Made by a program: the position numbers and the translations under genes. Source: Candidatus Gottesmanbacteria bacterium (GTDB lineage: Bacteria; Patescibacteriota; Microgenomatia; 2-02-FULL-39-11). Taken from it: 35,458 nt of DNA. Location: assembly GCA_016218275.1 (NCBI GenBank), contig JACREK010000001.1, positions 1 to 35,458 of the forward strand, read 5' to 3'. Positions 15,678 to 28,962 of the stretch are shown here, one piece after another. The notes under the pieces are model-generated. The model was not told the DNA's origin. It made no database searches and saw only the letters and a program-made list of their open reading frames with translations. Numbering within the stretch: the stretch's first letter is position 1; the number at the start of each line of letters is the position of its first letter.

Positions 15678-15716
15678 CCATTTTGCGACTGTCAAAACTT
15701 TGACGTTGCAAAATGG
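15678..15716. repeat. CCATTTTGCGAC...GCAAAATGG hairpin element
   Basis: CCATTTTGCGACTGTCAAAACTTTGACGTTGCAAAATGG. It has the same termini as the in-frame folD insert at 13642-13684. The ATTTTGCGA motif also occurs at 15004 and 15078. Confidence 0.8.
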
Positions 15717-15723
15717 ACGCCTT

Positions 15724-15756
15724 GCTTTTACGACATACGTTATATGTCGTAAAAGC
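15724..15756. repeat. Perfect 14-bp stem hairpin
   Basis: Stem GCTTTTACGACATA, loop CGTTA, stem TATGTCGTAAAAGC. Confidence 0.8.
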
Positions 15757-15989
15757 ATTATTGTGCGAACTATTAGCAATTCCGTTCCCTATCTGTCAGA
15801 ATCCCAACTAATTTAGCTTTGAAGTCGGACTTTATTATCTCGGAAGAGAGAATACTTGGTTTTCCAGTCCTAGGAGTATAGAGATGTAACCTCTTCTTCA
15901 TTTATTATTATAATCACTTCCGTATAGTACGTAACTATAGATATATAAGATATATAAAAGGGTTTTCGGTTTTTTTCCATTGCACTCGA

Positions 15990-16178
15990 TTTAGCGCATT
16001 ATTATGCTCTAAACTGTTTATTCTGAGACTAAATAAATAAGTTACTTGCCTCGGGACGATCCCGACGTTACGTCGGGATCACTTTAGGGCTTTATTAGGC
16101 TCTAAATTAATAAGTCCGAAGCTGATTTTAGGCGAATATAAGAAAAGAGTTTAGTTTAGAGCGTTATTATGCTCCAAA
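15990..16178 (+). repeat. Three direct copies of a 24-bp palindromic box, TTTAGNGCNTTATTAKGCTCYAAA
   Basis: Copies at 15990-16013, 16083-16106 and 16155-16178, all in the same orientation. Each has 8-bp inverted arms around an 8-bp AT-rich centre. Confidence 0.8.
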
Positions 16179-16232
16179 TTATTAATTTTATGCGTAAATT
16201 TAGTGTTCAATTCCCCTCGGATCCGTGCTCCA

Positions 16233-16274
16233 ACGATCCAGGATCGTTTCTACGGGAGTTCGATCCTGGATCGT
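16233..16274. repeat. 14-bp perfect inverted repeat
   Basis: ACGATCCAGGATCG (16233-16246) and CGATCCTGGATCGT (16261-16274), separated by a 14-nt loop. Confidence 0.8.
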
Positions 16275-16484
16275 ATCTCATCCGTGAAAAGCTGGAATAA
16301 ATATCGTGAAAACTATCCACATTCGCTCCCTTCGTCGCTGATGCTCCTCAGGGTAAACCCTTCGGTCGCTCAGTGTAAACACATTTTATTACTATACTAT
16401 TACTATAGGATATTATAGGCCTGTGTTATATCAAACTATATCACCCTTCATCCCTTCACCACTTCCCTCTTCCCCGCCGAAACA

Positions 16485-16556
16485 ATCAATTAATTATCCA
16501 ATTATCAAATTATCCAATTCTCAAATAATCAAATATTTTTGATTGGATAATTTGTC
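16485..16556. repeat. ATTATCCAAT-family palindromic element, copy A (right arm truncated)
   Basis: AATTATCCAATTATCAAATTATCCAATTCTCAAATAATCAAATATTTTTGATTGGATAATTTG, ending at the stop codon of the 16561 gene. Confidence 0.85.
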
Positions 16557-16560
16557 TCCC

Positions 16561-17376
16561 CTATCCCCAAGAAGTGATAAGAAAAGATAAGACAAATGTA
16601 AAAATAAATGCCAGAATATATTCCCTGATGGTATTGGCAAATAATTTTTCTAAAAGATGCTGCTGAACAATACCTACCAATGTATAGAAGCCGGCGGTGA
16701 TAAAAAGTGATACCGTCGCCATCTGTATAGGCCAAAATGATAATACCGCCGCCATTTCTCCGATACTGATGCTTATGACAAAAGCGTATATAACAATTTC
16801 CCTGGAAATTGCGGGTGTCAGTTTGACCGACCAGACAGATTGTAAGCTTAAAATAAATACTAAAGGAGTCAGAAACAGCATATTCACTAAAAAAGACGAT
16901 CTAGTGGAAAAAATGATACTGACCAATAAAAAAACAACTATCAATGTAATCAGAAGGCCGACGCTCTGAGCAACTCTTAAAAGCTGTATCGAGCGCGCAG
17001 CAGCTACATTATATATATTTTCAGCAAGAAGTGTTGCATAAGTACCTACGGCAAAAACAGCTGTAGTCAATAACCTGGTTATCCATCGGCCAGGTAACAA
17101 AAAATAAAATAAAGAAACGGATGCGGTAAAAAATACGGGCAAAATAAAAAGCAAAAACCACTCTGTACCTTTGATATCTTCAGACAGCGACCAGGCAGTC
17201 AAAAGATAGGAAATTATCGATAAAATTACCACCATACCAAATCTATAATCTTCCCATATAAGTTGAGTAATAAGAAGTCCAAAAGTAAGGATTATTGTTT
17301 GAAGTGCAAACCGCTGTCGTTTGTCTAAACTTAAAAGAAAATGCCGATGAGGAATAAATTTAAAAAAACGTTCCAT
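16561..17376 (-). CDS. Polytopic membrane protein, function unknown
   Basis: 271 aa with about 7-8 hydrophobic segments. I recognise no family motif. Confidence 0.6.
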   Translation of the reverse strand: MERFFKFIPHRHFLLSLDKRQRFALQTIILTFGLLITQLIWEDYRFGMVVILSIISYLLTAWSLSEDIKGTEWFLLFILPVFFTASVSLFYFLLPGRWITRLLTTAVFAVGTYATLLAENIYNVAAARSIQLLRVAQSVGLLITLIVVFLLVSIIFSTRSSFLVNMLFLTPLVFILSLQSVWSVKLTPAISREIVIYAFVISISIGEMAAVLSFWPIQMATVSLFITAGFYTLVGIVQQHLLEKLFANTIREYILAFIFTFVLSFLITSWG

Positions 17377-17439
17377 AAAAATTAGAGAGATCCCTCAGCC
17401 TGATGGCTTCGGGATGAGGGTGGGAATAATGTTCCACCC

Positions 17440-18183
17440 TCACTTAATATATTCATCCGGAATATCAAAATTAGCGTATACTTTTTGTACATCGTCCATA
17501 TCTTCAATTGCTGAAAGAAGCTTCAATATTTGCGCTGCAGTTTCTTTTTTTTCTATAGGTATGGTTGTTATCGGATGATAATCCAACTCAGACGAGGAGA
17601 CCGACAGGCCGAAAGCAATTAGTGCTTCCTTAATTTTATGCAACGAAGAAGGCTCTGTGAATATTTCGACATATTCCCCTGCATCTGAAATATCTGTCGC
17701 TCCGGCATTTATGGCCGCCTCCATTATTTCATCAAAAGATTTTTTGTCTTTCGCCACAGTTATCAAACCTACATACTTGAAAAAATGAGAGACGGAGCCG
17801 CTGGCAGCCAATACTCCCCCGCCTCTCTCCAAAATATTTTTTAGTTCAGAAACAGTTCTCTGTTTGTTGTTTGTAGCCGCCTCAATTATCACTCCTACAC
17901 CCCCGGGAGCAAACGCTTCATAAACTGCTTCCTGAAGTGTCCCTCCCTCCTCTCCCCCTCTGGCCCGTTCAATTGCACGTTCTATGTTTTCTTTAGGCAT
18001 ATTGTAAGAACGTGCTTTATCAATTGCCAGTCTTAATTTGAAGTTAAAATTGGGATCCGGACTTCCCCCTTCACCAACAGCAATTGTTATAGCATTGGCA
18101 AATTTGGTAAAAACTTTGCCTTTTGCCGCGTCTGTTGTCTCTTTCTGATGTTTTACTTTTGACCACTTGGAGTGACCGGACAT
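17440..18183 (-). CDS. yebC: YebC/PmpR-family probable transcriptional regulator
   Basis: 247 aa. It opens with MSGHSKWSKVKHQK, the diagnostic N-terminus of the family. Confidence 0.9.
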   Translation of the reverse strand: MSGHSKWSKVKHQKETTDAAKGKVFTKFANAITIAVGEGGSPDPNFNFKLRLAIDKARSYNMPKENIERAIERARGGEEGGTLQEAVYEAFAPGGVGVIIEAATNNKQRTVSELKNILERGGGVLAASGSVSHFFKYVGLITVAKDKKSFDEIMEAAINAGATDISDAGEYVEIFTEPSSLHKIKEALIAFGLSVSSSELDYHPITTIPIEKKETAAQILKLLSAIEDMDDVQKVYANFDIPDEYIK

Positions 18184-18232
18184 AAATTATAATTGTTATA
18201 ATAATTATAATAGTTATATTTTACTTTGACTC

Positions 18233-18261
18233 TTGACTTTTCTCAATGGGACTCTTAAACT
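18233..18261 (+). promoter_or_regulatory. Sigma70-type promoter for the TPR gene
   Basis: TTGACT (18233-18238), a 17-nt spacer, then TAAACT (18256-18261). A second TTGACT lies at 18226-18231. Confidence 0.5.
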
Positions 18262-18280
18262 ACCGTTATCTTTTCCACCA

Positions 18281-18997
18281 ATGTCTGACCAAACTTCACT
18301 TGCTATCCAAGCCGCATTATCCAATAACTGGGATAAAGCAATCGAAATAAATGAATCAATCCTGAAAGAAAACCCAGAAGACATAAATTCCATGAATAGA
18401 CTGGCATTTGCTCTTATACAGATGCAAAAAATTGATGAAGCCAAAAAAATCTATAAAAAAATACTTATAAAAGACAAATATAATTCAATTGCCCAAAAGA
18501 ATTTGGATAAAATCAGCAGTTTATCAAAAAATAAAAAAAAGGCTTTCGCCAAAAATAAAATCTGTACCTTATCTCCCTCTCTTTTTATAGAAGAACCGGG
18601 AAAAACAAAAACCGTAACGCTGGCAAATATTGCACCTTCATCGGTTCTTATAAATATAAATATCGGTGATGAAGTTTCCTTAAATCCGAAAAAACACTCG
18701 CTTGAAGTGCGAAGTTGTAATAAAGTCTATCTGGGAGCATTGCCGGATGATATAGCTTTTCGACTGCTGCGTCTGATAAAGAGTGGCAACAGCTATCATG
18801 TAAATGTCAAGAATATTTCCAAAAACAGTATCTCCGTATTTATTCGTGAACTAAAAAGGGGTAAGCGTTTTGCCACTCAACCGTCATTTGTAACACTTCT
18901 TCCTGACAGAAGCCATATTTATTCGCTGCATCACGAAAAAAATTCCGAGGAAGAGGAGGAAGAGGATAAACCGCCTGAGGCAGATTTGGACGAATAA
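18281..18997 (+). CDS. TPR-like repeat protein with uncharacterised C-terminal beta-rich domain and acidic tail
   Basis: The N-terminus has TPR-like helices (AIEINESILKENPEDINSMNRLAFALIQMQKIDEAKKIYKKIL). The track start at 18233 is a TTG inside the promoter, so ATG 18281 is preferred. Confidence 0.6.
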   Translation: MSDQTSLAIQAALSNNWDKAIEINESILKENPEDINSMNRLAFALIQMQKIDEAKKIYKKILIKDKYNSIAQKNLDKISSLSKNKKKAFAKNKICTLSPSLFIEEPGKTKTVTLANIAPSSVLININIGDEVSLNPKKHSLEVRSCNKVYLGALPDDIAFRLLRLIKSGNSYHVNVKNISKNSISVFIRELKRGKRFATQPSFVTLLPDRSHIYSLHHEKNSEEEEEEDKPPEADLDE

Positions 18998-19164
18998 TGG
19001 ACTATTTTCTCTTTAAGAAAAAGGATAACTCCGGAAATTTTTTTCTTCCTGGGAATCTTTAATTTTTTAATTTCCAATGGCACTGCTAATTCACGGTCAA
19101 CCGATCGTACCGCCAAAAAAACAGAAATAATAAAAAGTATTATGAATACAACCCCGTTTATCAT
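18931..19164 (-). CDS. Small membrane-anchored hypothetical protein
   Basis: 77 aa with an N-terminal TM segment. Its ATG overlaps the stop of the upstream LCP-like gene (ATGA). Its 3' end overlaps the convergent TPR gene by 67 nt, so the true length is uncertain. Confidence 0.35.
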   Translation of the reverse strand: MINGVVFIILFIISVFLAVRSVDRELAVPLEIKKLKIPRKKKISGVILFLKEKIVHYSSKSASGGLSSSSSSSEFFS

Positions 19165-20132
19165 TTTATAAAACCTTCGCCCAACAATAGTTTAATATCC
19201 ACACTGCTGGCTTCCTTCATATTTGTACCGTCTTCCATCTTACACTGATAATGGTTTACCAGTCTTTTAATCAGTATACCATTTCTTTTATTAAAAACTT
19301 TCACCAAACAGGAAAATTTTTCTGTTTGTTCCGATGTAGTTTTTGCGATTACATTGGCTCCAAGATTTTTTAAAACTCTGCCTACTTGAGTTGCCAGCTT
19401 ATCCACATCAGTTGCATTAACCACTTCCAAACTTACATTTTCAAAGCGAATTATGATATCCTCAAAATCATTTCCTATCACAAAATCAAATATATCGTTG
19501 TCGATTATTTTTACTGTCGTTTGGTCAGCTAATTTATTATCTGTCAAAGCTGTACTTTCGGACATATTTATAAGCTTTATTTTATCGCTTCTTAAATTTT
19601 TTATTTCCTGCCAGATACGATATAAATCCGCCAATGTCAAGTTAGTTTCATATTGACTGCCTTCCCTTAAAAATTTCAAAATAACGCCCGGCAGACTGGT
19701 ATATGAGAAATAATTCTTTTTTATATTCTTAATATCTTCTGAAGAGTTTATGGAAAATTTACTCATTCCCTCTTTTGGGGAAACATAACCGTCTATCATA
19801 ATCCCCAGTGAATTTTCAACACTTCTGGTCAATAAAAAACCGGAACGATGCTTGTTTTCCAGCTTACCTAATCGGAAAATCGATGAGGCTTTATAATCAC
19901 CGTATCCAAAAGGCACTTCCAGAAAAGTATTTGCAGGAATAGTCAAAACAGCCGCTCTATGAGTATTTGGCTCAAGAGATACTACTGTTAGGGGCTCACC
20001 GTTTAGCACAAATGTAAATCTTCCCGCCTCCCTCCATAATCTTCCCTTCCATACCAAAAAGATAGCTGTTATTAACAATAAAAAGATAGCCGCCAAAAAA
20101 AAGATTGCGGCACTTTTTCTCCTACTCCTCAT
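19161..20132 (-). CDS. LytR-CpsA-Psr (LCP)-like envelope protein with LytR_C-like C-terminal domain
   Basis: 323 aa. It has an N-terminal TM anchor, a divergent LCP-like core (LTVVSLEPNTHRAAVLTIPANTFLEVP...SLGIMIDGYV), and a C-terminal LEVVNATDVDKLATQVGRVLKNLG segment. The assignment is tentative. Confidence 0.5.
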   Translation of the reverse strand: MRSRRKSAAIFFLAAIFLLLITAIFLVWKGRLWREAGRFTFVLNGEPLTVVSLEPNTHRAAVLTIPANTFLEVPFGYGDYKASSIFRLGKLENKHRSGFLLTRSVENSLGIMIDGYVSPKEGMSKFSINSSEDIKNIKKNYFSYTSLPGVILKFLREGSQYETNLTLADLYRIWQEIKNLRSDKIKLINMSESTALTDNKLADQTTVKIIDNDIFDFVIGNDFEDIIIRFENVSLEVVNATDVDKLATQVGRVLKNLGANVIAKTTSEQTEKFSCLVKVFNKRNGILIKRLVNHYQCKMEDGTNMKEASSVDIKLLLGEGFIK

Positions 20133-20268
20133 ATTTACCCTTTTTAATGATTTCCACCTTCGGCAAGACGAAGGATTGTTTTTGGGTCATCATTTGGGCT
20201 TTTTTCTCAAGAAGAGCTTTTTTGGCTTTTTTCCGATCACCCTTATAAAAACCTCCAAATTGTCCCAT
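20122..20268 (-). CDS. 48-aa basic small protein (below ORF-track cutoff)
   Basis: ATG at 20268 lies a few nt downstream of GGAGGA (the complement of 20272-20277). Translation: MGQFGGFYKGDRKKAKKALLEKKAQMMTQKQSFVLPKVEIIKKGKYEE. Its stop overlaps the LCP-like start by 11 nt. Confidence 0.5.
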   Translation of the reverse strand: MGQFGGFYKGDRKKAKKALLEKKAQMMTQKQSFVLPKVEIIKKGKYEE

Positions 20269-20299
20269 ATTCCTCCTTTCGTTCCTCAAGGTAAACCTT

Positions 20300-22030
20300 T
20301 CAGTCCAAACCTTGATATACTCTCAAACTTCTCAGTTTATTCTCAATCACAGTAGTATCAAAAAATAATAAATGAAGCAATTCTTTGGTCATGGATACGG
20401 CGGCTTCAAATTCCGGCTGCACCACGCTGTCCACTCCCAGACTCTTTAATTTTTTTTGGTCTTCGTCAAAATGAGTCCGGCAGATTATCCTGATGTTGGG
20501 ATTAAGACTTAAAACATTCAGCACTACGGTTTCCTGGGTATGCCTGTCTGCGTATGCTAATATAACCGCCTTTGCCTGTTTTATTTTGGTAAATTCCAAG
20601 ACGTCTATTTCGGCAGGATCACCATAGATTACATTCACCCCCGAAAGTCGAAGAGATTTCACCAATTTATGATTATAATCAACTACTACATAGGGAATCT
20701 GGACAATGGAGAGAGCCCGGCAGATATATTTTCCTACTCGCCCGTGTCCCAAAACAACCACGTGATTGGAAAGGTCTATATCCGAAATCTGGGATGCGGG
20801 ATGAAATTTTGACAAAAAATTTGTCAGAAATCTGAATCTTTTCTTAAATATCTGATTTAATCTGTAATAAATCTTATCGCTGACTGTCAGAATCGGAACG
20901 GAAATGATAAGCGAGATGAATGAAACAGAGAGAATTGTCATATAAACTTTATCATCGATAAGACGGGAAGTTAAACCAAGCACGGCGATTATAAAAGCAA
21001 ATTCACCTACAGAAATCAGGGAAAAACCGGAAAGCACTGCGGTTTTGGGATGATAACCCAAAAGAAAAACCAAAGCTGCAGAAATAATAAATTTTAAAAG
21101 TACTACTACTACTACTAATCCCAAAATATTCATCCCTTGGGAAAATATAAAAAGCGGATTGAGTATAAATCCCAAAGAAACAAAAAATACGGATGAGAAA
21201 AGATCTCTTAAAGGTCTGACTTCGGCAAAAATACCGTGATGAGTCGAGGAAGACGAGAGAATGATTCCTGCCACAAAAGCGCCCAAAGGGAAAGACAATC
21301 CCAAAAATTGAAACAAATAAGCAAAAACTAGACAAAAAACTACAGCTGCCAAAAGGAGAAGTTCACGGCTCTTCAAATCGGCAATTTTCTCAAGGATAAA
21401 AGGCAGCGTTTTTTTTCCCAGAAAAATTACCAGCATAAAAGATGTAAAAGCAAAGAATATGCTTTTTGAAAAAAGAAATATGTTGCCTATCCCACTCCCT
21501 TCCCCTTTCAAAATAAGTCCCACGGTCGGCAAAATTATGATAAGCGGCAATGTATATAAATCCTGCATGAATAACCAACCGGAAGCAATCTCTCCGTGCA
21601 AAGTCTCAAGTTCTCCCTTATCCGATAAAGTCTTTAAGGCAACAGCCGTTGATGACAGGGAAAAGACGCAACCCAAAAACAGTGCCGTATAAAAATCAAT
21701 TCCCATAAGAGGGAAAATAATTATAAAAACGATTATTGTCAAAAGAACCTGAATTAAAGATCCGAATATGACCACCTCACCCAAATCTTTTAACTTAGTC
21801 AAAGAAAATTCCAGTCCCAAAGTAAAAAGGAGCAGAACTACTCCAATTTCGGCAATACTTCTTATGGTTTCGGCAATGGCAAAATAGTAAGATATGAAAT
21901 TACCAAAAATTACTCCGCCCAAAAGATAGCCCACCAAAATCGGCAATTTAAATCTTTTCGCAATCACTCCACCGACAAAGGCTGTCAGAAGTACAATAAC
22001 TAAATTACGAGCAAAAATAAAATCAGACAT
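20300..22030 (-). CDS. Kef-type (CPA2) cation:proton antiporter with C-terminal TrkA-N/RCK domain
   Basis: About 12 TM segments followed by a Rossmann motif, VVVLGHGRVGKYICRAL. The track start at 22039 is a TTG inside a repeat, so ATG 22030 (MSDFIFARN) is preferred. Confidence 0.8.
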   Translation of the reverse strand: MSDFIFARNLVIVLLTAFVGGVIAKRFKLPILVGYLLGGVIFGNFISYYFAIAETIRSIAEIGVVLLLFTLGLEFSLTKLKDLGEVVIFGSLIQVLLTIIVFIIIFPLMGIDFYTALFLGCVFSLSSTAVALKTLSDKGELETLHGEIASGWLFMQDLYTLPLIIILPTVGLILKGEGSGIGNIFLFSKSIFFAFTSFMLVIFLGKKTLPFILEKIADLKSRELLLLAAVVFCLVFAYLFQFLGLSFPLGAFVAGIILSSSSTHHGIFAEVRPLRDLFSSVFFVSLGFILNPLFIFSQGMNILGLVVVVVLLKFIISAALVFLLGYHPKTAVLSGFSLISVGEFAFIIAVLGLTSRLIDDKVYMTILSVSFISLIISVPILTVSDKIYYRLNQIFKKRFRFLTNFLSKFHPASQISDIDLSNHVVVLGHGRVGKYICRALSIVQIPYVVVDYNHKLVKSLRLSGVNVIYGDPAEIDVLEFTKIKQAKAVILAYADRHTQETVVLNVLSLNPNIRIICRTHFDEDQKKLKSLGVDSVVQPEFEAAVSMTKELLHLLFFDTTVIENKLRSLRVYQGLD

Positions 22031-22034
22031 AAGA

Positions 22035-22138
22035 ATCAATTATTCAATTATCCAATTATCAAATTATCCAATTCTCAAATAATCAAATATTACTTATTGG
22101 ATAATTTGTTGATTTGAGAATTTGTTGATTGGATAATT
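22035..22138. repeat. ATTATCCAAT-family palindromic element, copy B (complete)
   Basis: The left arm is AATTATCCAATTATCAAATTATCCAATTCTCAAATAATCAAATATT. The right arm contains the 41-mer TGGATAATTTGTTGATTTGAGAATTTGTTGATTGGATAATT (22098-22138), identical to 23111-23151 and 31189-31229. Confidence 0.9.
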
Positions 22139-22940
22139 CATTTCTTTCTAACCCATCTAATACTTTTTTTAATTCCACTGGTAATTTACTCTTTACCTCA
22201 ATTTCTTTTTCAGATACCGGATGTTTAAACTTAAGATAACTTGCATGTAAAAATAGTCTCGGGCAAAAAATTTTATCCTCCCTGTATACTTTTCTGCCGG
22301 CATAAAACATATCCGAAACGATACTGTGCCCTAAGTATTTTAAGTGTACCCTTATTTGATGTGTCCGTCCAGTTGCGGGAGTTACCTCCAGAAGGGAAAA
22401 TGTGTCATTGCGATCCCGTGCAACGGGAGAAGCAATCTTTACAGATTCATATAGATCGCCACGCAACGCTTGCGATGACAAAGGGATAAACTTATAGTAA
22501 GCAATAACCTTATATTTTGTAGTTGCTTCTTTTCCTGCCGGCAGAATCCCAAATCTTTCCCTATTCCATGGTAATCGGCCTATATTTGCTCTTACTTCAC
22601 CCGCTGGGGGTTTGACATCTCCGTGCACCAAAGCGGTATATTTTTTGCTGATTTTTCTGTCTTTAAACTGGGTTTGAAGATTGAAAAAGGCTTGGGGGGT
22701 TTTGGCGATTATCAGAAGTCCGGATGTTTCCTTGTCGAGCCGATGAACAATTCCCGCTCTTTTATAAAAATCACTTTCTTCATCAATTTTTAATTTTTCA
22801 TTTTTAATTTTTAATTTTTCATCCGCCCAATCTTGAATTGTTTCACCAATTACAGATTCGGCCTTATTTACTACAACTTGGGCAGGCTTATTTATTACTA
22901 AAAGTGTTTCATCTTCAAAGACGATGGGGATATCCAGCAT
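22083..22940 (-). CDS. RluA-family pseudouridine synthase with an in-frame repeat insert and a repeat-encoded C-terminal tail
   Basis: Catalytic motif HRLDKETSGLLIIAK and TGRTHQIRVHL. The last roughly 18 aa (NELSNQQILKSTNYPISNI) are read from element B. Confidence 0.85.
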   Translation of the reverse strand: MLDIPIVFEDETLLVINKPAQVVVNKAESVIGETIQDWADEKLKIKNEKLKIDEESDFYKRAGIVHRLDKETSGLLIIAKTPQAFFNLQTQFKDRKISKKYTALVHGDVKPPAGEVRANIGRLPWNRERFGILPAGKEATTKYKVIAYYKFIPLSSQALRGDLYESVKIASPVARDRNDTFSLLEVTPATGRTHQIRVHLKYLGHSIVSDMFYAGRKVYREDKIFCPRLFLHASYLKFKHPVSEKEIEVKSKLPVELKKVLDGLERNELSNQQILKSTNYPISNI

Positions 22941-23153
22941 AAATTATCTAATTATCCAATTCTCAAATAATCCAATAATCAAATATTTTTGATTGGAACC
23001 TATCTCAAAACCTCGAAAAACTATATTGTTCGAACGTAGTGAGAACTTCTCGCTGGAGTTTATCCCGAGCGAAGTCGAGGGACTCGAAGAATAGGTTTTG
23101 AGATGACTTCTGGATAATTTGTTGATTTGAGAATTTGTTGATTGGATAATTAT
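22941..23153. repeat. ATTATCCAAT-family element, copy C/D, split by an inserted second element
   Basis: The left arm is 22941-22997 and the right arm is 23111-23153. See the mobile_element 22998-23110. Confidence 0.85.
22998..23110. mobile_element. 113-bp MITE-like insertion with 12-bp terminal-proximal inverted repeats and a TGGA target-site duplication
   Basis: ATCTCAAAACCT (23002-23013) pairs with AGGTTTTGAGAT (23093-23104). TGGA at 22994-22997 and 23111-23114 flanks the insert, whereas intact copies read GATTGGATAA. The interior carries TATCCCGAGCGAAGTCGAGGGAC. Confidence 0.7.
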
Positions 23154-23512
23154 CTCTTCTCCCTCTTCCTTTCACAGGAAACGCAGTACAATGCGGTGGG
23201 TTTGACGGCAAGTCTGTCTGTATCAATCATATTTTTGCAGGACATACATTTGCCGTAAGTGCCTTTTTTTATCCTCTCCAAAGCGATCTTGATCTCCTCC
23301 ATATGCAGTCTCAACTCTCTTTCCAGAGCCTCCATTCTCTCATGAGAAATCTCTTCTTTAGCATCGGTGTCAGAAGCAGCATTATCATTTAACCTGTCCG
23401 GATCGGAAAACGGATCCTGTGATTTAAGCGAGGATATATTCACCGTTATCCTGTCTTTCTCTTTTGTCAGATGATCCGCAATCTTTTTCAATACATTTAA
23501 TGGAAATCTCAT
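23150..23512 (-). CDS. DksA/TraR-family C4 zinc-finger protein
   Basis: 120 aa: a coiled-coil region, then CMSC...(17 aa)...CVSC. Confidence 0.8.
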   Translation of the reverse strand: MRFPLNVLKKIADHLTKEKDRITVNISSLKSQDPFSDPDRLNDNAASDTDAKEEISHERMEALERELRLHMEEIKIALERIKKGTYGKCMSCKNMIDTDRLAVKPTALYCVSCERKREKR

Positions 23513-24267
23513 AGTTTTGCCTGTCTGATTATTTTAATTCGCCTCCATAAAGGAACCGCAACGGAAATCAAAATAATCAATGCGCCTAATTGTCTAAGGC
23601 TGAATATATATAAGTATATCGGGTAGACCTTTAAAAATTCAAGAAGGAAAATGATTATTGAGAGAATTGCGGCAAAAAAAAGACAGACTATCCCTTGGGG
23701 CCATTTCTTCCGTTTAACTTTTCCCCAAACCCATTGGAGAAAACAGAAAAGAAGAAAAATAAGTATTGCTTCATATAATTCCACCGGATGATAACGGCCT
23801 GTTTGGCCGATAATTCTTACCCCCAGTATAAAATTGGTTTCTTTTCCGAAACTTGCCCCTCCGAGTTGCTCCCCTATCTTTGCCAATCCCAATGCAAGAC
23901 TTGCCGAAAGAGCAAAAAGATCGGAAAGATGGTAAAAATCATATTTCTTCTTCCGGGCATACCAGTAAAGAAAAATAAACCCTCCCAAAAGTCCTCCTAT
24001 CAGAGATATTCCCGGAGTCTCCCGCACTACTATATATTTAAGAAAATTTGCCCCGAACTGGGGAAAATGGAGAAATATATATACAAATCTGGCCGAAATA
24101 AGAGCAACAATACTTGTGTATAAAAAAGTATCAATATATTCCTCTTCCTTCAGCTCTTCCCTTCCCTCTCTCCAAATCAAAAAAGTTGAAAAAAGAAAAG
24201 CGATACTTAAGAATATTCCGAATGAATAGACATTAAAAGGCCCGATGGTAAAAAGTATAGGTAACAT
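23509..24267 (-). CDS. lgt: Prolipoprotein diacylglyceryl transferase
   Basis: Polytopic protein. It has the N-terminal pattern FNVYSFGIFLSIAF and a YHPVELYEAIL motif. The track start at 24315 is a TTG inside repeat E, so ATG 24267 (MLPILFTIG) is preferred. Confidence 0.75.
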   Translation of the reverse strand: MLPILFTIGPFNVYSFGIFLSIAFLFSTFLIWREGREELKEEEYIDTFLYTSIVALISARFVYIFLHFPQFGANFLKYIVVRETPGISLIGGLLGGFIFLYWYARKKKYDFYHLSDLFALSASLALGLAKIGEQLGGASFGKETNFILGVRIIGQTGRYHPVELYEAILIFLLFCFLQWVWGKVKRKKWPQGIVCLFFAAILSIIIFLLEFLKVYPIYLYIFSLRQLGALIILISVAVPLWRRIKIIRQAKL

Positions 24268-24280
24268 AATATTAAATAAA

Positions 24281-24368
24281 CCAATTATCCAATTCTCAAA
24301 TAATCCAATAATCAAATATTTTTAATTTGAGAATTTGTTGATTTGAGAATTTGTTGATTGGATAATTT
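24281..24368. repeat. ATTATCCAAT-family palindromic element, copy E
   Basis: It shares the 28-mer GATTTGAGAATTTGTTGATTGGATAATT with copies B, D and G. It contains the MFS stop codon (24312). Confidence 0.85.
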
Positions 24369-25601
24369 AATAATATTATTTGCTCTTCGTCTTTGCAAGT
24401 AATGATATGCCCCTATTATCAACACTACAAAACCAATAATCGCTAGTGTCTTCCCTACTCCAATTACATCAGCCAAAAGTCCAGAAAACAAAACCGGTAA
24501 AAGAGAAACTCCTCCAGTAAGTGAAGTCAGTACTCCGTAAACTCTTCCGCGCATATCACTTTTTGAATCTTCCTGAAGGATTGTATTTGCCGGAACACTG
24601 ATGAAAGAGTTAGATACCCCGAGCAAAAAAAGCAAAATAATGACAGCCAGAAAGTTATTTCCCTGACTTAATCTTGTAGCCAGAGACAACAGCAACAGAA
24701 CTACAGCGGAAATACTGATGCCTGACAGTATAATTGACCCTTTCAGAAACTTAATGCCGAATCCCCCTATCCACACTGCACCGATAATTAAACCTACCGC
24801 GGCAGGCCCCATCACCAGATATGATGCTTCAGTCAGGGCAATTCTTAGAACTTTATCCGCAAATCCCGGAGCAAGTACAGCTAAGGTAGAGATAAGTGCC
24901 TGGGAAAAAGTCACCAGAATCAGGCTTTGGGTAATACGCTCGTTGGATTTTATAAAGAGCAGTCCATCCTCAACAGTCTTACCGATGAAATTTAAATTCA
25001 TATGAATATCCAGATTTCTTTTTTTTGGTTTAATCGGAGGCACTAAATAAACAAAATATGTCGCCAGAAGCATTATAAAAGTCATTATCAGATACACGTT
25101 GCGGAAGCCAAAAATATTAAGCATAGGTCCGGAAAGTATAAAACCGGTAATTGTGGAAAGATAAAAACTGACGGTAAAAAGAGAATTAGCGGTCAGAATA
25201 TCGGAAGGCTCAACCAGAATAGGGATAGACGGGGCTTCCGCCGGCACAAATAATTGGGTAACAATTGATATTATTATAATCAGCGCATAAATGGCCAGAA
25301 GATTTGATTGTAAGAAAAATAAAGCCAGAAAGATTAAGACCCGAAAGATATTACAGAAAATAAGCACCAGCCGTTTGTCGAAAAAATCAACCAATCCTCC
25401 CGCAAGAATTCCAAACATAATTGAGGGGATTCCGAATGCCAAAAGCATCAGCGAAACTGCGGTGTTGGAGTGCGTTTGTTGATAAACGCGAATCGCCAGA
25501 ACAAATATCAGCATGTTGAGTGCTATTTGAGAGCTAATTTGTCCCAGCCAAAGATTGCGAAACTTAGGATTTTTTACAACTGCAAGATAAGAACTAATCA
25601 T
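24312..25601 (-). CDS. MFS transporter
   Basis: 429 aa with about 12 TM segments. The C-terminal tail KLSNQQILKSTNSQIKNI is read from repeat E. Confidence 0.8.
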   Translation of the reverse strand: MISSYLAVVKNPKFRNLWLGQISSQIALNMLIFVLAIRVYQQTHSNTAVSLMLLAFGIPSIMFGILAGGLVDFFDKRLVLIFCNIFRVLIFLALFFLQSNLLAIYALIIIISIVTQLFVPAEAPSIPILVEPSDILTANSLFTVSFYLSTITGFILSGPMLNIFGFRNVYLIMTFIMLLATYFVYLVPPIKPKKRNLDIHMNLNFIGKTVEDGLLFIKSNERITQSLILVTFSQALISTLAVLAPGFADKVLRIALTEASYLVMGPAAVGLIIGAVWIGGFGIKFLKGSIILSGISISAVVLLLLSLATRLSQGNNFLAVIILLFLLGVSNSFISVPANTILQEDSKSDMRGRVYGVLTSLTGGVSLLPVLFSGLLADVIGVGKTLAIIGFVVLIIGAYHYLQRRRANNIIKLSNQQILKSTNSQIKNI

Positions 25602-25612
25602 CGATGGTGAAT

Positions 25613-25647
25613 AAATCCCTCTCCGCCAGCTGGCGGATCGGGATGAA
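25613..25647 (-). promoter_or_regulatory. 35-nt stem-loop module immediately upstream of the MFS start (exact copy of 31958-31992)
   Basis: Read on the minus strand: TTCATCCCGATCCGCCAGCTGGCGGAGAGGGATTT. It contains the 14-nt perfect palindrome CCGCCAGCTGGCGG and lies 11 nt upstream of the ATG. Confidence 0.6.
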
Positions 25648-25670
25648 GCTGGGGCATAATTGCCCCATCT

Positions 25671-27167
25671 TCATTTGTTTAATAAGTAGTGAAGCAATAA
25701 TCTGACGCCAAAACCAACTCCACCTTGCGGTGCCAAAGCCGTATCTTTTTCAGCATAAGCCGGGCCGGCTATATCCAAGTGCATCCACGGCGTACTACCG
25801 ACAAATTCTGACAGAAACAGCGCCCCGGTAATTGCTCCGCCATATTTACCGGTTTGTATATTTTTTATATCGGCAATATGACTTTTCAAAAGCTCTTTAT
25901 ATTCTTCCTCAAGCGGCATCCGCCAAATTTTCTCGCAGGTTTCTTTCGCGCTTCTCTCCAAATCCTGCATCATTTTTTCATCGTTTCCCCAAAGTCCGGC
26001 TATTTCCTGACCCAAAGCCACCATACATGCGCCAGTGAGAGTAGCAATATCAATAATTTCGTCCGGCTTTTCCTTCATATTGGCAAAAGATATTGCATCA
26101 GCCAAGGTCAACCTTCCTTCCGCATCTGTATTCAATACTTCAATTGTTTTTCCATTCATGGCAGAAAGTATATCGCCGGGCTTTAAAGCATTCCCTGCCG
26201 GCATATTCTCGCAGGCGGCAATCAGTCCTACCACTTCAACTTTTGGATGCAAAGAAGGAAGTGCCTGAAAAATGGACAGTACGCTGGCGGCACCGGACAT
26301 ATCAAGTTTCATCGTTTCCATAAATTCCGCCGTTTTTATGGATAAACCTCCGGTATCAAAAGTTATCCCTTTCCCTATCAGAACAATCTTTTTCTTAGGG
26401 AGAGCGGGGCGATAAGAAAGTCTGATGAATTTCGGCGGTTTGACGCTGCCTTTTGCCACTCCCAAAAATGATCCCATCCCAAGTTTTTCTATCTCCTCTT
26501 TTTCCCAGACTTTTACCTTGATGCTTCCTTTTGAAGCTTTTGCGATATCTAAAGCTGTTTCTGCAAGAAATGAAGGATGGGTCACTTCACCGGGTTCATT
26601 TATCAAATCGCGGGCAAAGGAAACGCTTGCGGAAATGATTTCACCTATCTGTAAACCTTCTTCGGCAGCGGAAAGTTTTCCCGCGGAAAGAAGCAAGTCA
26701 ACCTCTTCCACTATCCTTGTTTTTTTCTTTTCTTCCTCGCTTTTATATTTGAGAAATTGGTATAAAGAAGCAGATACCGCCTCAACAACTGCTTGTACTG
26801 TTTTTGGGGTAGAAAATTTCTTTAACCATTCCGAAGGCAGTACTATGGCGATTTTTGCCGGTTTTCCCTCTCTTGATTTTTTCACCGCGGAAGCAATTGC
26901 TGTATATAAGTGATACGAATCGAATTTTTCCCGCTTTCCCAAACCAACCAGCAGGAATTTATAAGCGGAAATGATGCCTCTGGTTGAAAGTAAAAGAAGC
27001 TGGTCACTTTTGCCTTCAAAATCTTCCCTTGCGGCTCCCTCTTTCACTTCTTCTGATAATTCCTTACTGATATCTGAAGTTTCAGATAAATCTTTTTCCC
27101 AACAAAAACTGATTAAGATATCAGCTTCTATTTTGGAAGGATCGGTGGGCTTTAATAAGAACTTCAT
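25671..27167 (-). CDS. pepA: Leucyl aminopeptidase (M17)
   Basis: 498 aa. Motifs: VLNTDAEGRLTLADA, GKGITFDTGG, and a typical M17 C-terminal catalytic domain. Confidence 0.9.
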   Translation of the reverse strand: MKFLLKPTDPSKIEADILISFCWEKDLSETSDISKELSEEVKEGAAREDFEGKSDQLLLLSTRGIISAYKFLLVGLGKREKFDSYHLYTAIASAVKKSREGKPAKIAIVLPSEWLKKFSTPKTVQAVVEAVSASLYQFLKYKSEEEKKKTRIVEEVDLLLSAGKLSAAEEGLQIGEIISASVSFARDLINEPGEVTHPSFLAETALDIAKASKGSIKVKVWEKEEIEKLGMGSFLGVAKGSVKPPKFIRLSYRPALPKKKIVLIGKGITFDTGGLSIKTAEFMETMKLDMSGAASVLSIFQALPSLHPKVEVVGLIAACENMPAGNALKPGDILSAMNGKTIEVLNTDAEGRLTLADAISFANMKEKPDEIIDIATLTGACMVALGQEIAGLWGNDEKMMQDLERSAKETCEKIWRMPLEEEYKELLKSHIADIKNIQTGKYGGAITGALFLSEFVGSTPWMHLDIAGPAYAEKDTALAPQGGVGFGVRLLLHYLLNK

Positions 27168-27169
27168 AA

Positions 27170-27259
27170 TTAATCAACTAATTATCCAATCAACAAATTC
27201 TCAAATTAACAAATACAATATTATTGGATTATTGGTATTTATTGGATAATTGGATAATT
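27170..27259. repeat. ATTATCCAAT-family palindromic element, copy F (divergent)
   Basis: AATTATCCAATCAACAAATTCTCAAATTAACAAATACAATATTATTGGATTATTGGTATTTATTGGATAATTGGATAATT. Confidence 0.8.
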
Positions 27260-27266
27260 CTTTAGT

Positions 27267-27295
27267 TTGACTATTCAAGTTTAACAAAATATAAT
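27267..27295 (+). promoter_or_regulatory. Near-consensus sigma70 promoter driving the tRNA locus
   Basis: TTGACT (27267-27272), an exactly 17-nt spacer, then TATAAT (27290-27295). Confidence 0.7.
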
Positions 27296-27368
27296 CGGAA
27301 CAGTCAATTGGTAGAGTTTAGTAGAGTTTATTCTGAGAGTTTACTCTGAGCAGCTTAAGCTGCGAAGA

Positions 27369-27574
27369 GCCGCGGTGCTGGAACTGGCAGACCACAAAAT
27401 GGGCGGGTGCTGGAATTGGCAGACAGGTAAGTCTCAAAAACTTATGGCAGACAACTGCCGTGAGGGTTCAAGTCCCTCCCCGCCCACACGTGGCAGGCAG
27501 GCTAAAATGTGAGGGTTTACAGTGAAAAATCATCGCAATGATTTTTTACTGTTCAAATCTCTCCCGCGGCACCA
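27369..27574 (+). other. Split class II tRNA-like sequence enclosing the tRNA-Leu gene (disrupted tRNA or pseudogene?)
   Basis: GCCGCGG (27369-27375) followed by TG and a Leu-like D-arm. At the 3' end: GAGGG (27511-27515), a 36-nt palindromic insert, TTCAAAT, CTCTC, CCGCGGC, A, CCA (27552-27574). No anticodon arm is present. Confidence 0.4.
27401..27486 (+). tRNA. tRNA-Leu(CAA), class II
   Basis: Folded by hand. Acceptor GGGCGGG/CCCGCCC is a perfect 7 bp. U8. The D-loop carries GG. Anticodon stem TAAGT/ACTTA with loop CTCAAAA. The 17-nt variable arm pairs GGCAG/CTGCC. T-arm GAGGG-TTCAAGT-CCCTC. Discriminator A. CCA is not encoded. Confidence 0.9.
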
Positions 27575-27622
27575 AAAGGGCTTGCACTGAAAATTTTCGA
27601 CAGAAAATTTGAAGTGTTCGAC

Positions 27623-28958: not shown

Positions 28959-28962
28959 TAAA

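Follow-up and report, generated by a model that had tools for sequence, protein, structure and literature searches.

The DNA analysed here, a 35,458-nt stretch that makes up an entire contig of a Candidatus Gottesmanbacteria MAG (referred to below, at its full length, as the window), harbours a family of AT-rich palindromic repeats, 70–105 nt long and built from 8-nt units, that is represented by seven fragments at six loci, all packed within 15 kb (Table 1). We consider it probable, at roughly 0.6, that these are small, non-autonomous, copy-and-paste palindromic DNA elements of a MITE-like nature, which resemble the intervening sequences (IVSs) of rRNA and constitute the gene-less form of a cassette enclosing a gene for a 23S rRNA intervening-sequence protein (IVP). 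The family has so far been seen only in one Gottesmanbacteria lineage, from which the sequence inspected comprises the 35-kb window and ~5 kb extra from a sister strain. Provisionally, it also appears to be novel, given that no description was found in a literature search of incomplete coverage.

Table 1. Palindromic elements and the RAYT-like gene, with their coordinates in the window
Feature	Position	Strand	Structure and setting
RAYT-like gene (Y1_Tnp / REP_Tyr_transpos-like)	5536–6177		Within the window
Copy 1	16485–16556	-	Full Y arm (16492–16537), ATTTTT loop, X arm cut to ~13 nt; 4 nt downstream of the stop of the DUF5656 gene (16561–17376, minus strand)
Copy 2 (reference copy)	22035–22138	-	Y arm 22046–22089, loop, X arm 22095–22138; junction of the RluA-type and Na+/H+ antiporter genes; terminal inverted repeat AATTATCCAAT / ATTGGATAATT
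Copy 3, Y arm and loop side	22941–22997	-	Abuts the ATG of the RluA-type gene at 22940
Nested second palindromic element (113 nt)	22998–23110	.	Sits inside copy 3
Copy 3, X arm	23111–23153	-	41-mer the same as in copies 2 and 6
Copy 4	24281–24368	-	Y arm 24283–24323, X' arm 24325–24368 (39/41 identical to X); junction of the MFS gene and lgt; palindrome reaches into the flanks (24266–24376)
Copy 5	27170–27259	+	The only copy inverted relative to the others; on the plus strand, the X-type arm (27180–27214) precedes the other arm; between a conserved promoter-like 41-mer (27267–27307) and the M17 aminopeptidase start (27167)
Copy 6	31137–31229	-	Y3 arm 31137–31179, X arm 31187–31229; junction of the MBL-fold gene and dnaB

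An earlier reading of the window from its letters alone (the sequence-only reading) had proposed a dispersed palindromic family at seven gene junctions. Its coordinates are borne out, the 19-mer core of the family, ATTTGTTGATTGGATAATT, having five exact matches and 23 at up to three mismatches, against 0.09 expected from shuffled sequences, but the count is six. The reported base-for-base identity of a 41-mer at 22098–22138, 23111–23151 and 31189–31229 was reproduced, and relatives of this 41-mer occur at 24327–24367 (39/41) and, reverse-complemented, at about 27180 (35/41). Within every arm, Tandem Repeats Finder detects an 8/16-nt period. Non-coding DNA makes up 14.6% of the element-free sequence, and all six copies fall within it (P about 1e-5 under random insertion); in the window, each is flanked by protein-coding or tRNA genes. 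The claim that every copy sits exactly between two genes does not hold for copy 5: its position between the promoter-like 41-mer and the M17 aminopeptidase start places it in the presumed 5' leader of that gene. Searches with Rfam covariance models gave no match on any element, whether the gathering threshold or a cut-off of E ≤ 1 was applied. A phage or plasmid origin was rejected, as the element is without matches in the phage and plasmid collections; in viral contigs, the 41-mer is absent and the 19-mer gave three single matches.

Copies 2–6 and the IVP cassette of locus L029 (see below) all carry a perfect 11-bp terminal inverted repeat, AATTATCCAAT...ATTGGATAATT. The two arms, X and Y, differ, each being made up of 8-nt units (AATNWWCM), five or six in a row, and the number of units varies between copies. 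The X arm (the 41-mer) is nearly invariant, whereas the Y arm exists in three versions, and the pairing of X with Y versions changes between copies: three copies share an identical X, and Y is identical in two different pairs, namely, copies 1 and 2, and copies 3 and 4 (in the latter case over 41 nt). The copy that the sequence-only reading described as split between 22941–22997 and 23111–23153 is indeed split, and what interrupts it is itself a palindromic element: this nested insert is bordered by TGGA on either side (22994–22997 and 23111–23114), ends in a separate terminal inverted repeat (about ATCTCAAAACCT) and encloses the hairpin ATCCCGAGCGAAGTCGAGGGA. No direct repeat that would represent a target-site duplication recurs consistently around the six copies; only copy 3 has AGAT on both sides, and comparison of empty with filled sites is blurred by a DNA divergence of 20–30%. 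Across the window and 136 loci, the search for a full-length element that shares the 11-bp terminal inverted repeat and bears a transposase came up empty; the only longer relative carries an IVP gene.

The long hairpin envisaged by the sequence-only reading does fold, but its arms are only about 80% complementary, being different arrays rather than an arm and its complement, and the second arm of copy 1 is truncated. When the RNA of both strands is folded, hairpin energies of −15 to −29 kcal/mol are obtained, with z-scores of −1.9 to −5.3 that make the elements more stable than shuffled sequences. Antisense RNA folds better than the RNA that is co-transcribed with the genes. The stems are A–U rich, with very few G–C pairs, at most two per 8-nt unit. 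Moreover, 97.5% of permuted pairings are more stable than the native ones and, since native arms pair no better than swapped ones, the hairpin, though real, lacks optimization for pairing. Selection for pairing was accordingly rejected, the comparison of native with chimeric arms having come out the opposite way.

The elements donate repeat-encoded tails, stop codons and false longest-ORF starts to the neighbouring genes, all three of which had been recognized from the sequence. Copy 2 supplies the last 17–18 codons and the stop of the RluA-type gene (22083–22138; tail ...LSNQQILKSTNYPISNI*), and copy 4 provides the MFS gene with its stop and a 17-residue tail (24312–24368; tail ...LSNQQILKSTNSQIKNI*). 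The stops of the DksA/TraR-like gene (23150–23152, copy 3) and of the MBL-fold gene (31229–31231, overlapping the last base of copy 6) lie in the first unit of an element; that of the gene at 16561, also said to be at an element edge, is 4 nt away from an element. The longest-ORF TTG starts of the antiporter gene (22039), lgt (24315) and dnaB (31154) fall within elements, whereas homology places the true ATGs at 22029, 24267 and 31130, respectively. On either strand, a C-rich arm that is almost free of stops precedes a G-rich arm in which nearly every frame is closed by a stop; an upstream ORF with a displaced stop therefore reads on for ~17 codons and then ends, which accounts for the 17-residue tails of the RluA-type and MFS proteins. 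By estimate, about 40% of AT-rich 43-mers that contain G would have a stop in each of the three frames, and about 7% of G-free arms would be without stops in any frame. Since the asymmetry is thus mostly compositional, we regard it as a property that provides no evidence of selection, and stops in all frames as a designed feature was rejected.

Contrary to the confinement to this window or contig that would have refuted the sequence-only reading, the copies recur in an independent assembly, and related arrays are found in other Gottesmanbacteria contigs. The sister assembly GCA_016214705.1, which is 99.4–99.7% identical to the window, carries all five of the copies that it covers, without gaps: contig L135 is 99.67% identical over 9,600 nt, again without gaps, and also has the nested insert, and copy 6 is base-for-base identical in L043. 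Inside elements, there is 1 of the 32 mismatches between the window and the sister strain, against 1.65 expected. The picture at the orthologous junctions of relatives is different. Their gene order (L036–L042) runs MBL, DnaB, tRNA-Leu, M17, MFS, Lgt, DksA, RluA and Na/H exchanger, and, in three syntenic relatives, the octamer element is at none of these junctions, which are 2–50 nt wide. Because they are absent from syntenic relatives with the same gene order, the copies are lineage-specific insertions; this, together with the occurrence of identical arms in different combinations, upholds the suggestion of recent spread or homogenization. At the MBL–dnaB junction of one relative (L036), there is a gene-less hairpin made of a GTAYC-type 9-mer vocabulary.

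Related arrays also occur in other Gottesmanbacteria contigs, in places within genes. In L070, a single-arm array lies in frame inside trxB, where it contributes ~13 extra residues in a loop, and in L009, an array lies inside an RNase H gene, the array-coded stretch replacing a segment of equal length. A scan of genome contigs with the 19-mer found matches in MAGs labelled Gammaproteobacteria, Bacteroidales and others; the idea of a cross-phylum family was dropped, as most of the single matches are due to chance and lie inside genes. The 'Gammaproteobacteria' contigs share loci with L070, the glutamate dehydrogenase of which is closest to Gottesmanbacteria proteins. Some Bacteroidota-labelled contigs (L010, L017, L055, L069 and L084) have related but different arrays.

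The main clue to the identity of the element is, on sequence comparison, its homology to arms that enclose an IVP gene; like the nested insert and the difference between the X and Y arms, this homology had escaped the sequence-only reading. At L029, arms that are identical to the window arms at 50/58 and 47/59 positions flank a gene for a 119-aa four-helix-bundle IVP (PF05635 / TIGR02436), with the ORF exactly in the loop. This homology identifies the window element as the gene-less form of a putative IVP-enclosing cassette of the L029 type, the link of the 8-mer subfamily to IVP being drawn from one locus, L029, with its duplicates L051, L054, L058 and L106. Further IVP genes adjoin arrays in L010, L055 and L070. 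Additionally, four IVP genes taken irrespective of repeats (L117, L118, L124 and L130) are all flanked, as judged by eye, by inverted GTAYC-type units. Inverted-repeat local alignment places three of these four loci well above shuffled sequences (z = 5.3, 2.6 and 7.9), and the fourth, L124, which has only one or two units upstream, at z = 0.0. Relative to 16 control genes, the Mann–Whitney test gives p = 0.011 for the four loci and p = 1.3e-4 for all eight IVP loci, so that inverted arrays at the flanks are a general trait of IVP genes. The IVP proteins of L029 and L010 match each other (phmmer), and both are flanked by AATTATCC-type 8-mer arrays, while those of L070, L117, L118, L124 and L130 are all flanked by GTAYC-type 9-mers. 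As to an empty or hairpin-only counterpart of the L029 cassette site, the related S1–RadA junction (L134) presents neither, being occupied instead by an unrelated 233-aa gene, and Rfam detected no rRNA beside arrays in the window or 20 loci.

A more general scheme can be put forward tentatively. IVP genes and the inverted short-unit arrays flanking them may together constitute one kind of mobile cassette, present in CPR bacteria and Bacteroidota, of which the classical 23S IVSs would be only those copies that ended up in rRNA. Gene-less derivatives, the six window copies among them, would have colonized operon junctions and even coding sequences. The arrays would be recognition sites for the IVP protein or a partner enzyme, which would explain why IVP clades match unit vocabularies. 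We think this possible, albeit with the odds against it.

As to how the window elements themselves arose, we envisage that copies were pasted into short AT-rich spacers (ATAAT-like and near stop or start codons) between tightly packed genes, by an enzyme presumably supplied in trans, and that recombination or gene conversion between copies would keep the arms identical. Once co-transcribed, an element would fold as an imperfect A–U-rich hairpin with a perfect outer stem of 11–13 bp and, by analogy with rRNA IVSs and Correia elements, would be a likely substrate for the double-strand-specific RNase III. Indeed, IVSs have inverted-repeat borders, are cut by RNase III, and occur in forms with and without the S23p ORF (PMC4990558), and the terminal inverted repeats of Correia elements in mRNAs are cut by the same enzyme (PMC10969869). 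Such processing would uncouple formerly coupled cistrons, at a near-neutral cost to the host. Besides recent copying, the near-invariance of the X arm could reflect a function.

Such a function might belong to the host, the elements then being selected RNA structures that tune the flanking genes as intercistronic terminators or attenuators, as 3'-end mRNA stabilizers (a role reportedly proposed for REP sequences) or as structures that uncouple translation. All copies do lie at gene boundaries, they have been kept unchanged in the sister strain, they fold significantly more stably than shuffled sequences, and the X arm hardly varies; moreover, in another Gottesmanbacteria contig, single C-rich arms in sense orientation immediately precede start codons. 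Nevertheless, we judge this explanation unlikely, given that close syntenic relatives do without the elements at every one of these junctions, that like arrays are also found inside coding sequences, that one copy is broken by a nested insert and another lies between promoter and start codon, and that both the comparison with swapped arm pairs and the weaker folding of gene-sense RNA point the other way. The bidirectional terminators suggested by the sequence-only reading fare no better: the stems are A–U rich with very few G–C pairs, a scan of positions 16000–32000 called 16 terminator-like sites of which none coincides with an element, copy 5 is in a 5' leader, and the other copies split what are, in relatives, tight operon junctions of essential genes. 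Function could alternatively reside in the DNA, as arrays of 8-bp sites bound cooperatively by a nucleoid, partition or repressor protein (the omega repressor, for example, binds heptad arrays) or by DnaA. The strict 8-nt period and small unit vocabulary would suit such a role, as would conservation of the X arm beyond the needs of pairing. The unit TTATCCAAT matches the DnaA box, TTATCCACA, at 7/9 positions, but lacks the CAC that forms part of this box; there is neither dnaA nor dnaN in the window, and no candidate binding protein is encoded nearby. Similarly, the conserved arm holds a promoter-like match, TTGATT-17-GATAAT, but at 9/12 positions only and antisense in five of the six copies, and the number of such matches over the whole region (65 versus 44.8 ± 6.2 in shuffled sequences) is modestly raised. 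The fixed polarity would suit it too, every Gottesmanbacteria or Levyibacteriota hairpin seen having its C-rich arm 5' of the dyad whichever strand is read, but this may simply be inherited from one ancestor element. With sites at unrelated junctions, within ORFs elsewhere, and absent from the same loci in relatives, binding arrays are, in our estimation, very unlikely.

Neither of the remaining explanations invokes function. Octamers might have expanded at each junction by replication slippage and inverted duplication, without any mobility, the likeness between copies being due to convergence. Many Gottesmanbacteria junctions have 7–9-nt tandem arrays of differing units, a likeness to the terminal unit is already present in the ancestral spacers (GTATTGGAATAAT in L039 and TAGATAATT in L036), and the copies are unequal in unit number, all of which would fit growth in situ. 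However, ordered arms of 41–46 nt, made up of different units, recur base for base at loci separated by as much as 9 kb and in different combinations, which rules out slippage as their source, and the same ordered arm surrounds an IVP gene in another genome; we therefore consider this explanation highly improbable. The chance that the copies are chimeric joins or collapsed repeats in a metagenome-assembled contig is practically negligible: short-read assemblers break or mis-join at repeats, and a 1,190-nt Logan contig does break inside elements at both ends, as is expected of a multi-copy repeat, but two contigs of GCA_016214705.1, which was assembled independently, contain five of the six copies, flanks included, without gaps, and the gene order across every element agrees with the synteny of the relatives. 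TIGR-Tas or CRISPR-like arrays were rejected on the grounds of period and architecture, the lack of a Tas or Cas effector and the dispersal of the copies.

Mobile DNA is generally said to be scarce in the small, densely packed genomes of the CPR; in the window, a repeat family has wedged itself into junctions of 2–50 nt between essential genes (dnaB, lgt and an RluA-type gene). As the elements rewrite stops, add tails and mislead gene callers over starts, they matter for the annotation of MAGs. They also tie dispersed hairpin repeats to IVSs and four-helix-bundle genes, both poorly understood, and the many natural insertion events provide material for studying mechanism. Should the general scheme outlined above for IVP cassettes be right, the long-standing question of the origin and movement of IVSs would become open to experiment.

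Among known systems, the intrinsic terminator, a short G+C-rich stem-loop followed by a U tract, is one that the window elements do not fit. Another comparison is with the cyanobacterial STRR, which Mazel et al. are said to have described in 1990: reportedly, these are intergenic tandem heptamers, often forming two inverted arrays and capable of hairpin formation, with lineage-specific unit sequences and a function that is unknown. The window element differs in having 8-nt units (9-nt in its relatives) instead of 7-nt ones, in arraying different units in a set order instead of repeating one, and in its defined 11-bp terminal inverted repeat and link to the IVP cassette. The Rickettsia palindromic elements, of ~100–150 nt, insert in frame, are open, and become parts of proteins (PMC10969869). 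The 17-residue C-terminal tails on two proteins, and the ~13 in-frame residues of TrxB in L070, may be comparable, but the window elements are mostly intergenic and clip gene ends only, belong to another host phylum and are made of 8-nt units.

With the REP/REPIN–RAYT system (PMC3116915, PMC3337134 and PMC3733652), the window element shares an architecture of two inverted arms and a spacer forming a ~100-nt hairpin, as well as non-autonomy, an extragenic location and the lack of a target-site duplication. REPs are, however, G+C-rich palindromes of 20–40 nt with a GTAG or CGTC tag (PMC3733652), whereas the window arms are A+T-rich octamer arrays with neither tetranucleotide at their ends. The window does encode a RAYT-like protein, which scores 54.6 bits, below the NCBIfam cut-off of 80. 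Its gene is flanked by a different hairpin, AACGAACCGGGATCGTT, at 5496, 6221 and 6241, with no octamer arms, and this Y1 transposase-like protein was rejected as the mobilizer since its hairpin belongs to another family.

In being, at 72–105 nt, shorter than ~600 bp, devoid of coding capacity of their own, dispersed in several copies and bounded by terminal inverted repeats, the window elements fit the description of a MITE. The Correia MITE of Neisseria (PMC10969869) offers a parallel of this type, being likewise ~100 nt long, non-coding and multi-copy with terminal inverted repeats, as well as intergenic, prone to nesting, variably present between relatives and equipped with sigma70-like hexamers; cleavage of its hairpins by RNase III at the terminal inverted repeats has been shown, whereas for the window element we infer it. 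Departures from the MITE pattern are the absence of a recognizable target-site duplication and, in the window and 136 loci, of a transposase-bearing parent IS that shares the terminal inverted repeat, the construction of the arms as modular 8-nt arrays rather than unique sequence, and a 'full-length' relative that bears an IVP gene in place of a transposase.

The last of these features leads to the 23S rRNA IVSs of Coxiella, Leptospira and Salmonella (PMC4990558). These are located in rRNA helices 9, 25 or 45 and are regarded as selfish, their means of spread being unknown (PMC4990558); the window element lies between protein-coding genes, arrays elsewhere lie occasionally within them, and, unlike those of IVSs, its stems consist of tandem short units that are only about 80% paired. 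Both, nonetheless, have complementary termini forming a long stem, and both are sporadic between relatives. The same two forms also recur: one of ~430–490 nt whose loop holds a PF05635 ORF (as in L029, L070 and others), and one of ~100 nt without the ORF, as found in the window.

Repeat finding, Tandem Repeats Finder and direct reading all recover AT-rich palindromic elements at the positions proposed in an earlier, sequence-only reading, although the seven gene junctions counted there reduce to six loci, the 'split' copy being one interrupted element. The six copies are members of one family: the core 19-mer ATTTGTTGATTGGATAATT has five exact matches in the window, and 23 with at most three mismatches, against 0.09 expected. 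All six lie in non-coding DNA, which makes up 14.6% of the element-free sequence (P about 1e-5); the genome was sampled over the 35 kb of the window and about 5 kb more from a sister strain. Copy 3 is broken on the loop side of its hairpin by a 113-nt insert (22998-23110), which is itself a second kind of small palindromic element: TGGA is duplicated at either side, the ends form a separate terminal inverted repeat (about ATCTCAAAACCT), and a hairpin, ATCCCGAGCGAAGTCGAGGGA, lies inside. The window and the fetched loci hold no further full copy of it.

Copies of the element and the genes around them
Feature	Coordinates	Strand	Remarks
Copy 1	16485-16556		AT-rich, 8/16-nt period
Copy 2	22035-22138		AT-rich, 8/16-nt period
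Copy 3	22941-22997 + 23111-23153		AT-rich, 8/16-nt period
Copy 4	24281-24368		AT-rich, 8/16-nt period
Copy 5	27170-27259		AT-rich, 8/16-nt period
Copy 6	31137-31229		AT-rich, 8/16-nt period
dnaB	29796-31130	minus	DnaB 100% identical to Candidatus Gottesmanbacteria (CPR lineage) protein
DUF5656; Na+/H+ exchanger with TrkA_N domain; RluA-type pseudouridine synthase; DksA/TraR zinc-finger protein		minus	flank elements
Lgt; MFS transporter; M17 aminopeptidase; DnaB; MBL-fold protein		minus	flank elements
tRNA-Leu		plus	sole plus-strand gene among those round the elements
Content of block 27488-29795	28963-29613 (PaaX_M/Cas2-like gene)		also a methyltransferase-like ORF and a 108-aa ORF

Every complete copy is delimited by a perfect 11-bp terminal inverted repeat, AATTATCCAAT...ATTGGATAATT, within which lie two arms, X and Y, each a different ordered series of 8-nt units that fit AATNWWCM. 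Read with the genes, X is AATTATCCAAT CAACAAAT TCTCAAAT CAACAAAT TATCCAAT, and Y is a different series of units. The X arm is the same in copies 2, 3 and 6, in agreement with the claim of a 41-mer identical at three loci, and matches at 39/41 positions in copy 4; the Y arm is shared by copies 1 and 2 over 46 nt and by copies 3 and 4 over 41 nt. Since the X and Y versions are paired differently from copy to copy, this mosaic indicates copying plus recombination or gene conversion among the copies, and not independent growth by slippage. Read in the direction of the flanking genes, five of the six copies begin with X; the inverted one, copy 5, lies just upstream of the M17 start codon and downstream of a promoter-like palindrome. 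The latter, a 41-mer at 27267-27307 (TTGACT...AGTCAA) between the divergent tRNA-Leu and M17 peptidase genes, matches TTGACT-17-TATAAT at 11/12 positions on the plus strand; a relative retains it at 97.6% identity, in surrounding DNA of only about 70-80% identity.

The history of the copies is apparent from contigs whose DnaB is 94%, 87% or 83% identical to that of the window (L036-L042; L036 is the one at 94%). These syntenic relatives have the same gene order (MBL, DnaB, tRNA-Leu, M17, MFS, Lgt, DksA, RluA, Na/H exchanger), with genes separated by, for instance, 2 nt at MFS-Lgt and 7 nt at DksA-RluA, and by 1-50 nt at other junctions. Comparison of orthologous junctions, a check proposed in the sequence-only reading, finds them filled in the window and the sister strain and empty of octamer elements at every corresponding junction of L036-L042; in the alignments, the elements are clean additional blocks, and the ancestral spacers hold ATAAT-like sequence similar to the terminal unit (L039, GTATTGGAATAATATG; L036, AAATAGATAATTAATG). 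The copies are, then, lineage-specific insertions. All five that are covered by contigs of the sister strain, GCA_016214705.1, are present there: one contig (L135) aligns with window positions 27675-18076 at 99.67% identity with zero gaps, only one of its 32 mismatches falling within elements (1.65 expected), and another (L043) carries the dnaB-proximal copy identical base for base. A 1,190-nt contig from another run has both ends inside elements, as repeats cause, but the gap-free recurrence of five copies in the sister-strain contigs excludes an assembly artefact. In this population the copies are fixed, and their rate of evolution does not exceed that of the neighbouring DNA.

At the junction between the MBL gene and dnaB, where the window has an octamer copy, L036 carries a gene-less hairpin of 9-mers (AAGTACCAC...; 9878-9998; -36 kcal/mol, z = -5.3) in the vocabulary found around intervening-sequence protein genes of the type discussed below; the junction has been colonized independently by two element vocabularies. 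L036 also has a short-unit hairpin of AATAACCC octamers at 765-900 (z about -5.3). In L036, dnaB lies right next to tRNA-Leu; compared with it, the window has an insertion of approximately 2.3 kb (27488-29795), with tandem arrays at its edge (29710-29812).

The origin of the elements is suggested by a locus in another assembly, L029 (also represented by L051, L054, L058 and L106), in which two octamer arms flank a 119-aa ORF for a four-helix-bundle protein of PF05635/TIGR02436, '23S rRNA-intervening sequence protein' (IVP). The X arm of copy 2 matches the left arm of this locus at 50/58 positions, and the Y arm its right arm at 47/59, first loop bases included, and the ORF takes exactly the position of the 6-nt loop of the window elements; the arms of the latter are homologous to those of the IVP cassette. 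Further IVP genes adjoin arrays in L010, L055 and L070, although in L070 the arrays have another unit, of 9 nt, GTACGGGAA. Four CPR homologues of the L070 protein, fetched regardless of repeats (L117, L118 (Shapirobacteria), L124, L130 (Curtissbacteria)), all have, by eye, inverted GTAYC-type 9-mer arrays directly up- and downstream of the IVP ORF, with only one or two units upstream in L124. Local alignment of the upstream flank with the reverse complement of the downstream flank gave z = 5.3, 2.6, 0.0 and 7.9, respectively, for these four, and 4.1 to 14.3 for four array-selected IVP loci, whereas only one of 16 control genes exceeded 2 (Mann-Whitney p = 0.011 for the unbiased four and 1.3e-4 for all eight). 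IVP genes are, therefore, generally bracketed by inverted arrays. Moreover, each vocabulary is found both in arms flanking an IVP gene and in gene-less hairpins at junctions: the 8-mers in L029 and the window, respectively, and the 9-mers in the L070-type flanks and L036. In L117, L118 and L124 (three CPR lineages; gene at 2001-2381 in each), the IVP gene lies immediately 3' of a roughly 780-aa DUF8128/TrwB-like coupling-protein-type ATPase gene, a position that either is conserved or is favoured as a target.

Scans for the exact 19-mer, single-shot for genome contigs and metagenomes, returned 35 genome-contig, 70 metagenome and 3 viral loci, most of them single chance matches inside genes; genuine octamer arrays are present at about thirty loci. 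The ordered core of the X arm (a 33-nt part of the 41-mer) is confined to the window and the sister strain among 116 loci, the viral contigs lack the full 41-mer, and phage and plasmid collections gave no match to the element. What appeared to be a spread across phyla narrows for the most part to Gottesmanbacteria and adjacent Microgenomates (L001, L019 and L024), since contigs labelled Gammaproteobacteria have loci in common with L070, the glutamate dehydrogenase of which is 72% identical to Gottesmanbacteria proteins. L009, L016 and L033 (CAYHFH01) and L029 (CAYRFA01) are labelled 'uncultured Gammaproteobacteria', yet have loci resembling those of Gottesmanbacteria; the three of CAYHFH01 have sequence contexts in common with L070, and the S1 protein of L029 (385 aa) has four domains as opposed to the six of Escherichia coli S1, which argues against its label. 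Mis-binning or mislabelling of these public records is probable. Long arrays in which 15-21 octamers (AATTATCC/AATCAACC type) all point one way, and which are not hairpins, occur at L017 3-143, L069 2774-2962 and L084 1044-1144; two of these contigs come from or match a Bacteroidales-labelled MAG.

Could the elements instead be maintained as signals for the adjacent genes? The coding ends are certainly affected: the RluA-type and MFS ORFs run 17-18 codons into elements, with the repeat-encoded tails ...LSNQQILKSTNYPISNI and ...LSNQQILKSTNSQIKNI that had been claimed, and the DksA-like and MBL stop codons do lie at element edges, within the first unit. The TTG starts of the longest ORFs for the antiporter, lgt and dnaB also fall inside elements, but orthologue alignment places the real ATGs elsewhere, at 22029, 24267 and 31130, respectively. 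These effects arise from composition, because on either strand a C-rich arm precedes a G-rich arm: in gene sense the X arm has no stop in any of the three frames, a typical Y arm, on its C-rich strand, has two open frames and a single stop in the third, and G-rich arms have stops in three frames in 10/12 cases and in two frames in 2/12. By our own estimate, this open-then-stop pattern is largely predicted by base composition, and is a property of the element, not evidence of design. In L070, single C-rich arms extend from an upstream stop codon to just before the next ATG of co-directional genes, and an in-frame array within trxB lengthens a loop by about 13 residues compared with PDB 5uth; an array inside an RNase H ORF in L009 leaves its length almost unchanged.

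A role as bidirectional terminators, as suggested in the sequence-only reading, fares poorly. Folded as RNA, as had also been advised there, both strands form hairpins (-15 to -29 kcal/mol, z-scores -1.9 to -5.3), with the antisense (plus) strand folding slightly better in every case owing to G-U pairs, but no element scores as an intrinsic terminator in a terminator scan, and no Rfam family matches. When first and second arms were recombined among ten hairpins (five from the window and five from other contigs), native pairs were less stable than chimeric ones (mean residual +3.6 kcal/mol; 97.5% of permutations more stable); joining the X-type arm of copy 5 to the X arm of copy 2, for instance, yields -47 kcal/mol, where the native elements reach -28 and -15. 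The arms are, therefore, not maintained as mutual complements, and the perfect stem is limited to the outer 11-13 bp. The X arm also holds a promoter-like TTGATT-17-GATAAT (9/12 match), which runs antisense in all but one of the six copies; over the region, such matches show only a small excess.

Other small repeats share the window. A RAYT-like Y1 (IS200-type) transposase gene (5536-6177, minus strand; Pfam Y1_Tnp 27 bits, NCBIfam REP_Tyr_transpos 54.6 bits, short of the cut-off, 80) has inverted hairpins of its own, AACGAACCGGGATCGTT, on both sides (5496-5512 and 6221-6257), with one more copy 10 kb off (16232-16248), and looks like a separate small REP/RAYT-like system. Adjoining a XerC/D-type recombinase gene (14063-14989) are 1.5 kb without any ORF of at least 80 aa (14990-16480), crowded with G+C-rich hairpins and three 45-nt repeats (15990, 16083 and 16155), which look like a graveyard or landing pad for small elements. 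Short G+C-rich hairpins, (T)GTCATCCCGAGCGAAGCGAGGGATC, are dispersed mostly at gene ends (2661-2688, 4626-4654, 12880-12907, 15154-15182, 15524-15551 and 23062-23082), and this motif type is also seen in L019, another Gottesmanbacteria contig. Arrays of the self-complementary 9-nt unit TAAGTNACT at three other junctions (10336-10374, with -16 kcal/mol and z = -3.5; 14037-14065; 34297-34325) are another short-unit junction repeat family of the same genome. A perfect 35-nt inverted pair, 6.3 kb apart (25613-25647 and 31958-31992), has each member at a gene junction and containing the palindrome CCGCCAGCTGGCGG.

In our reading, the six copies are an IVS-like cassette in its gene-less form, as their architecture matches that of rRNA intervening sequences (IVSs) and their behaviour that of bacterial MITEs. 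They would propagate by copy-and-paste through an enzyme supplied in trans, a mode of mobilization that we infer; they would be co-transcribed with the flanking genes, processed by RNase III and nearly neutral for the host, the effects on gene ends being side effects. No prior description was found by sequence or concept in a literature lacking most subscription journals. IVSs without an ORF are of roughly 100 nt, the size seen in Salmonella. The window elements and the IVP cassette likewise are bordered by inverted repeats, with or without an ORF, although the former do not lie in rRNA and so are not IVSs in the strict sense. The inverted repeats at the borders of an IVS pair into a stem that RNase III cleaves; forms bearing an S23p/IVP ORF (Coxiella, Leptospira) measure roughly 430-450 nt, and IVSs are of sporadic distribution and are considered selfish, with their mode of spread unknown (PMC4990558). 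Like MITEs, the elements are small and multi-copy, are bounded by terminal inverted repeats, show nesting between genes, are present in some relatives and absent from others, and contain promoter-like hexamers; no target-site duplication was found for them, and no cognate transposase-bearing parent in the window and 136 fetched loci. Identity with REP/REPIN sequences is rejected, given the wrong composition, the lack of a GTAG or CGTC tag, and the different hairpins of the RAYT-like gene itself. Finally, the elements may be likened to Correia elements, the terminal inverted repeats of which are cleaved by RNase III in transcripts, as may occur here, and to Rickettsia palindromic elements, which reside in frame in ORFs (PMC10969869).
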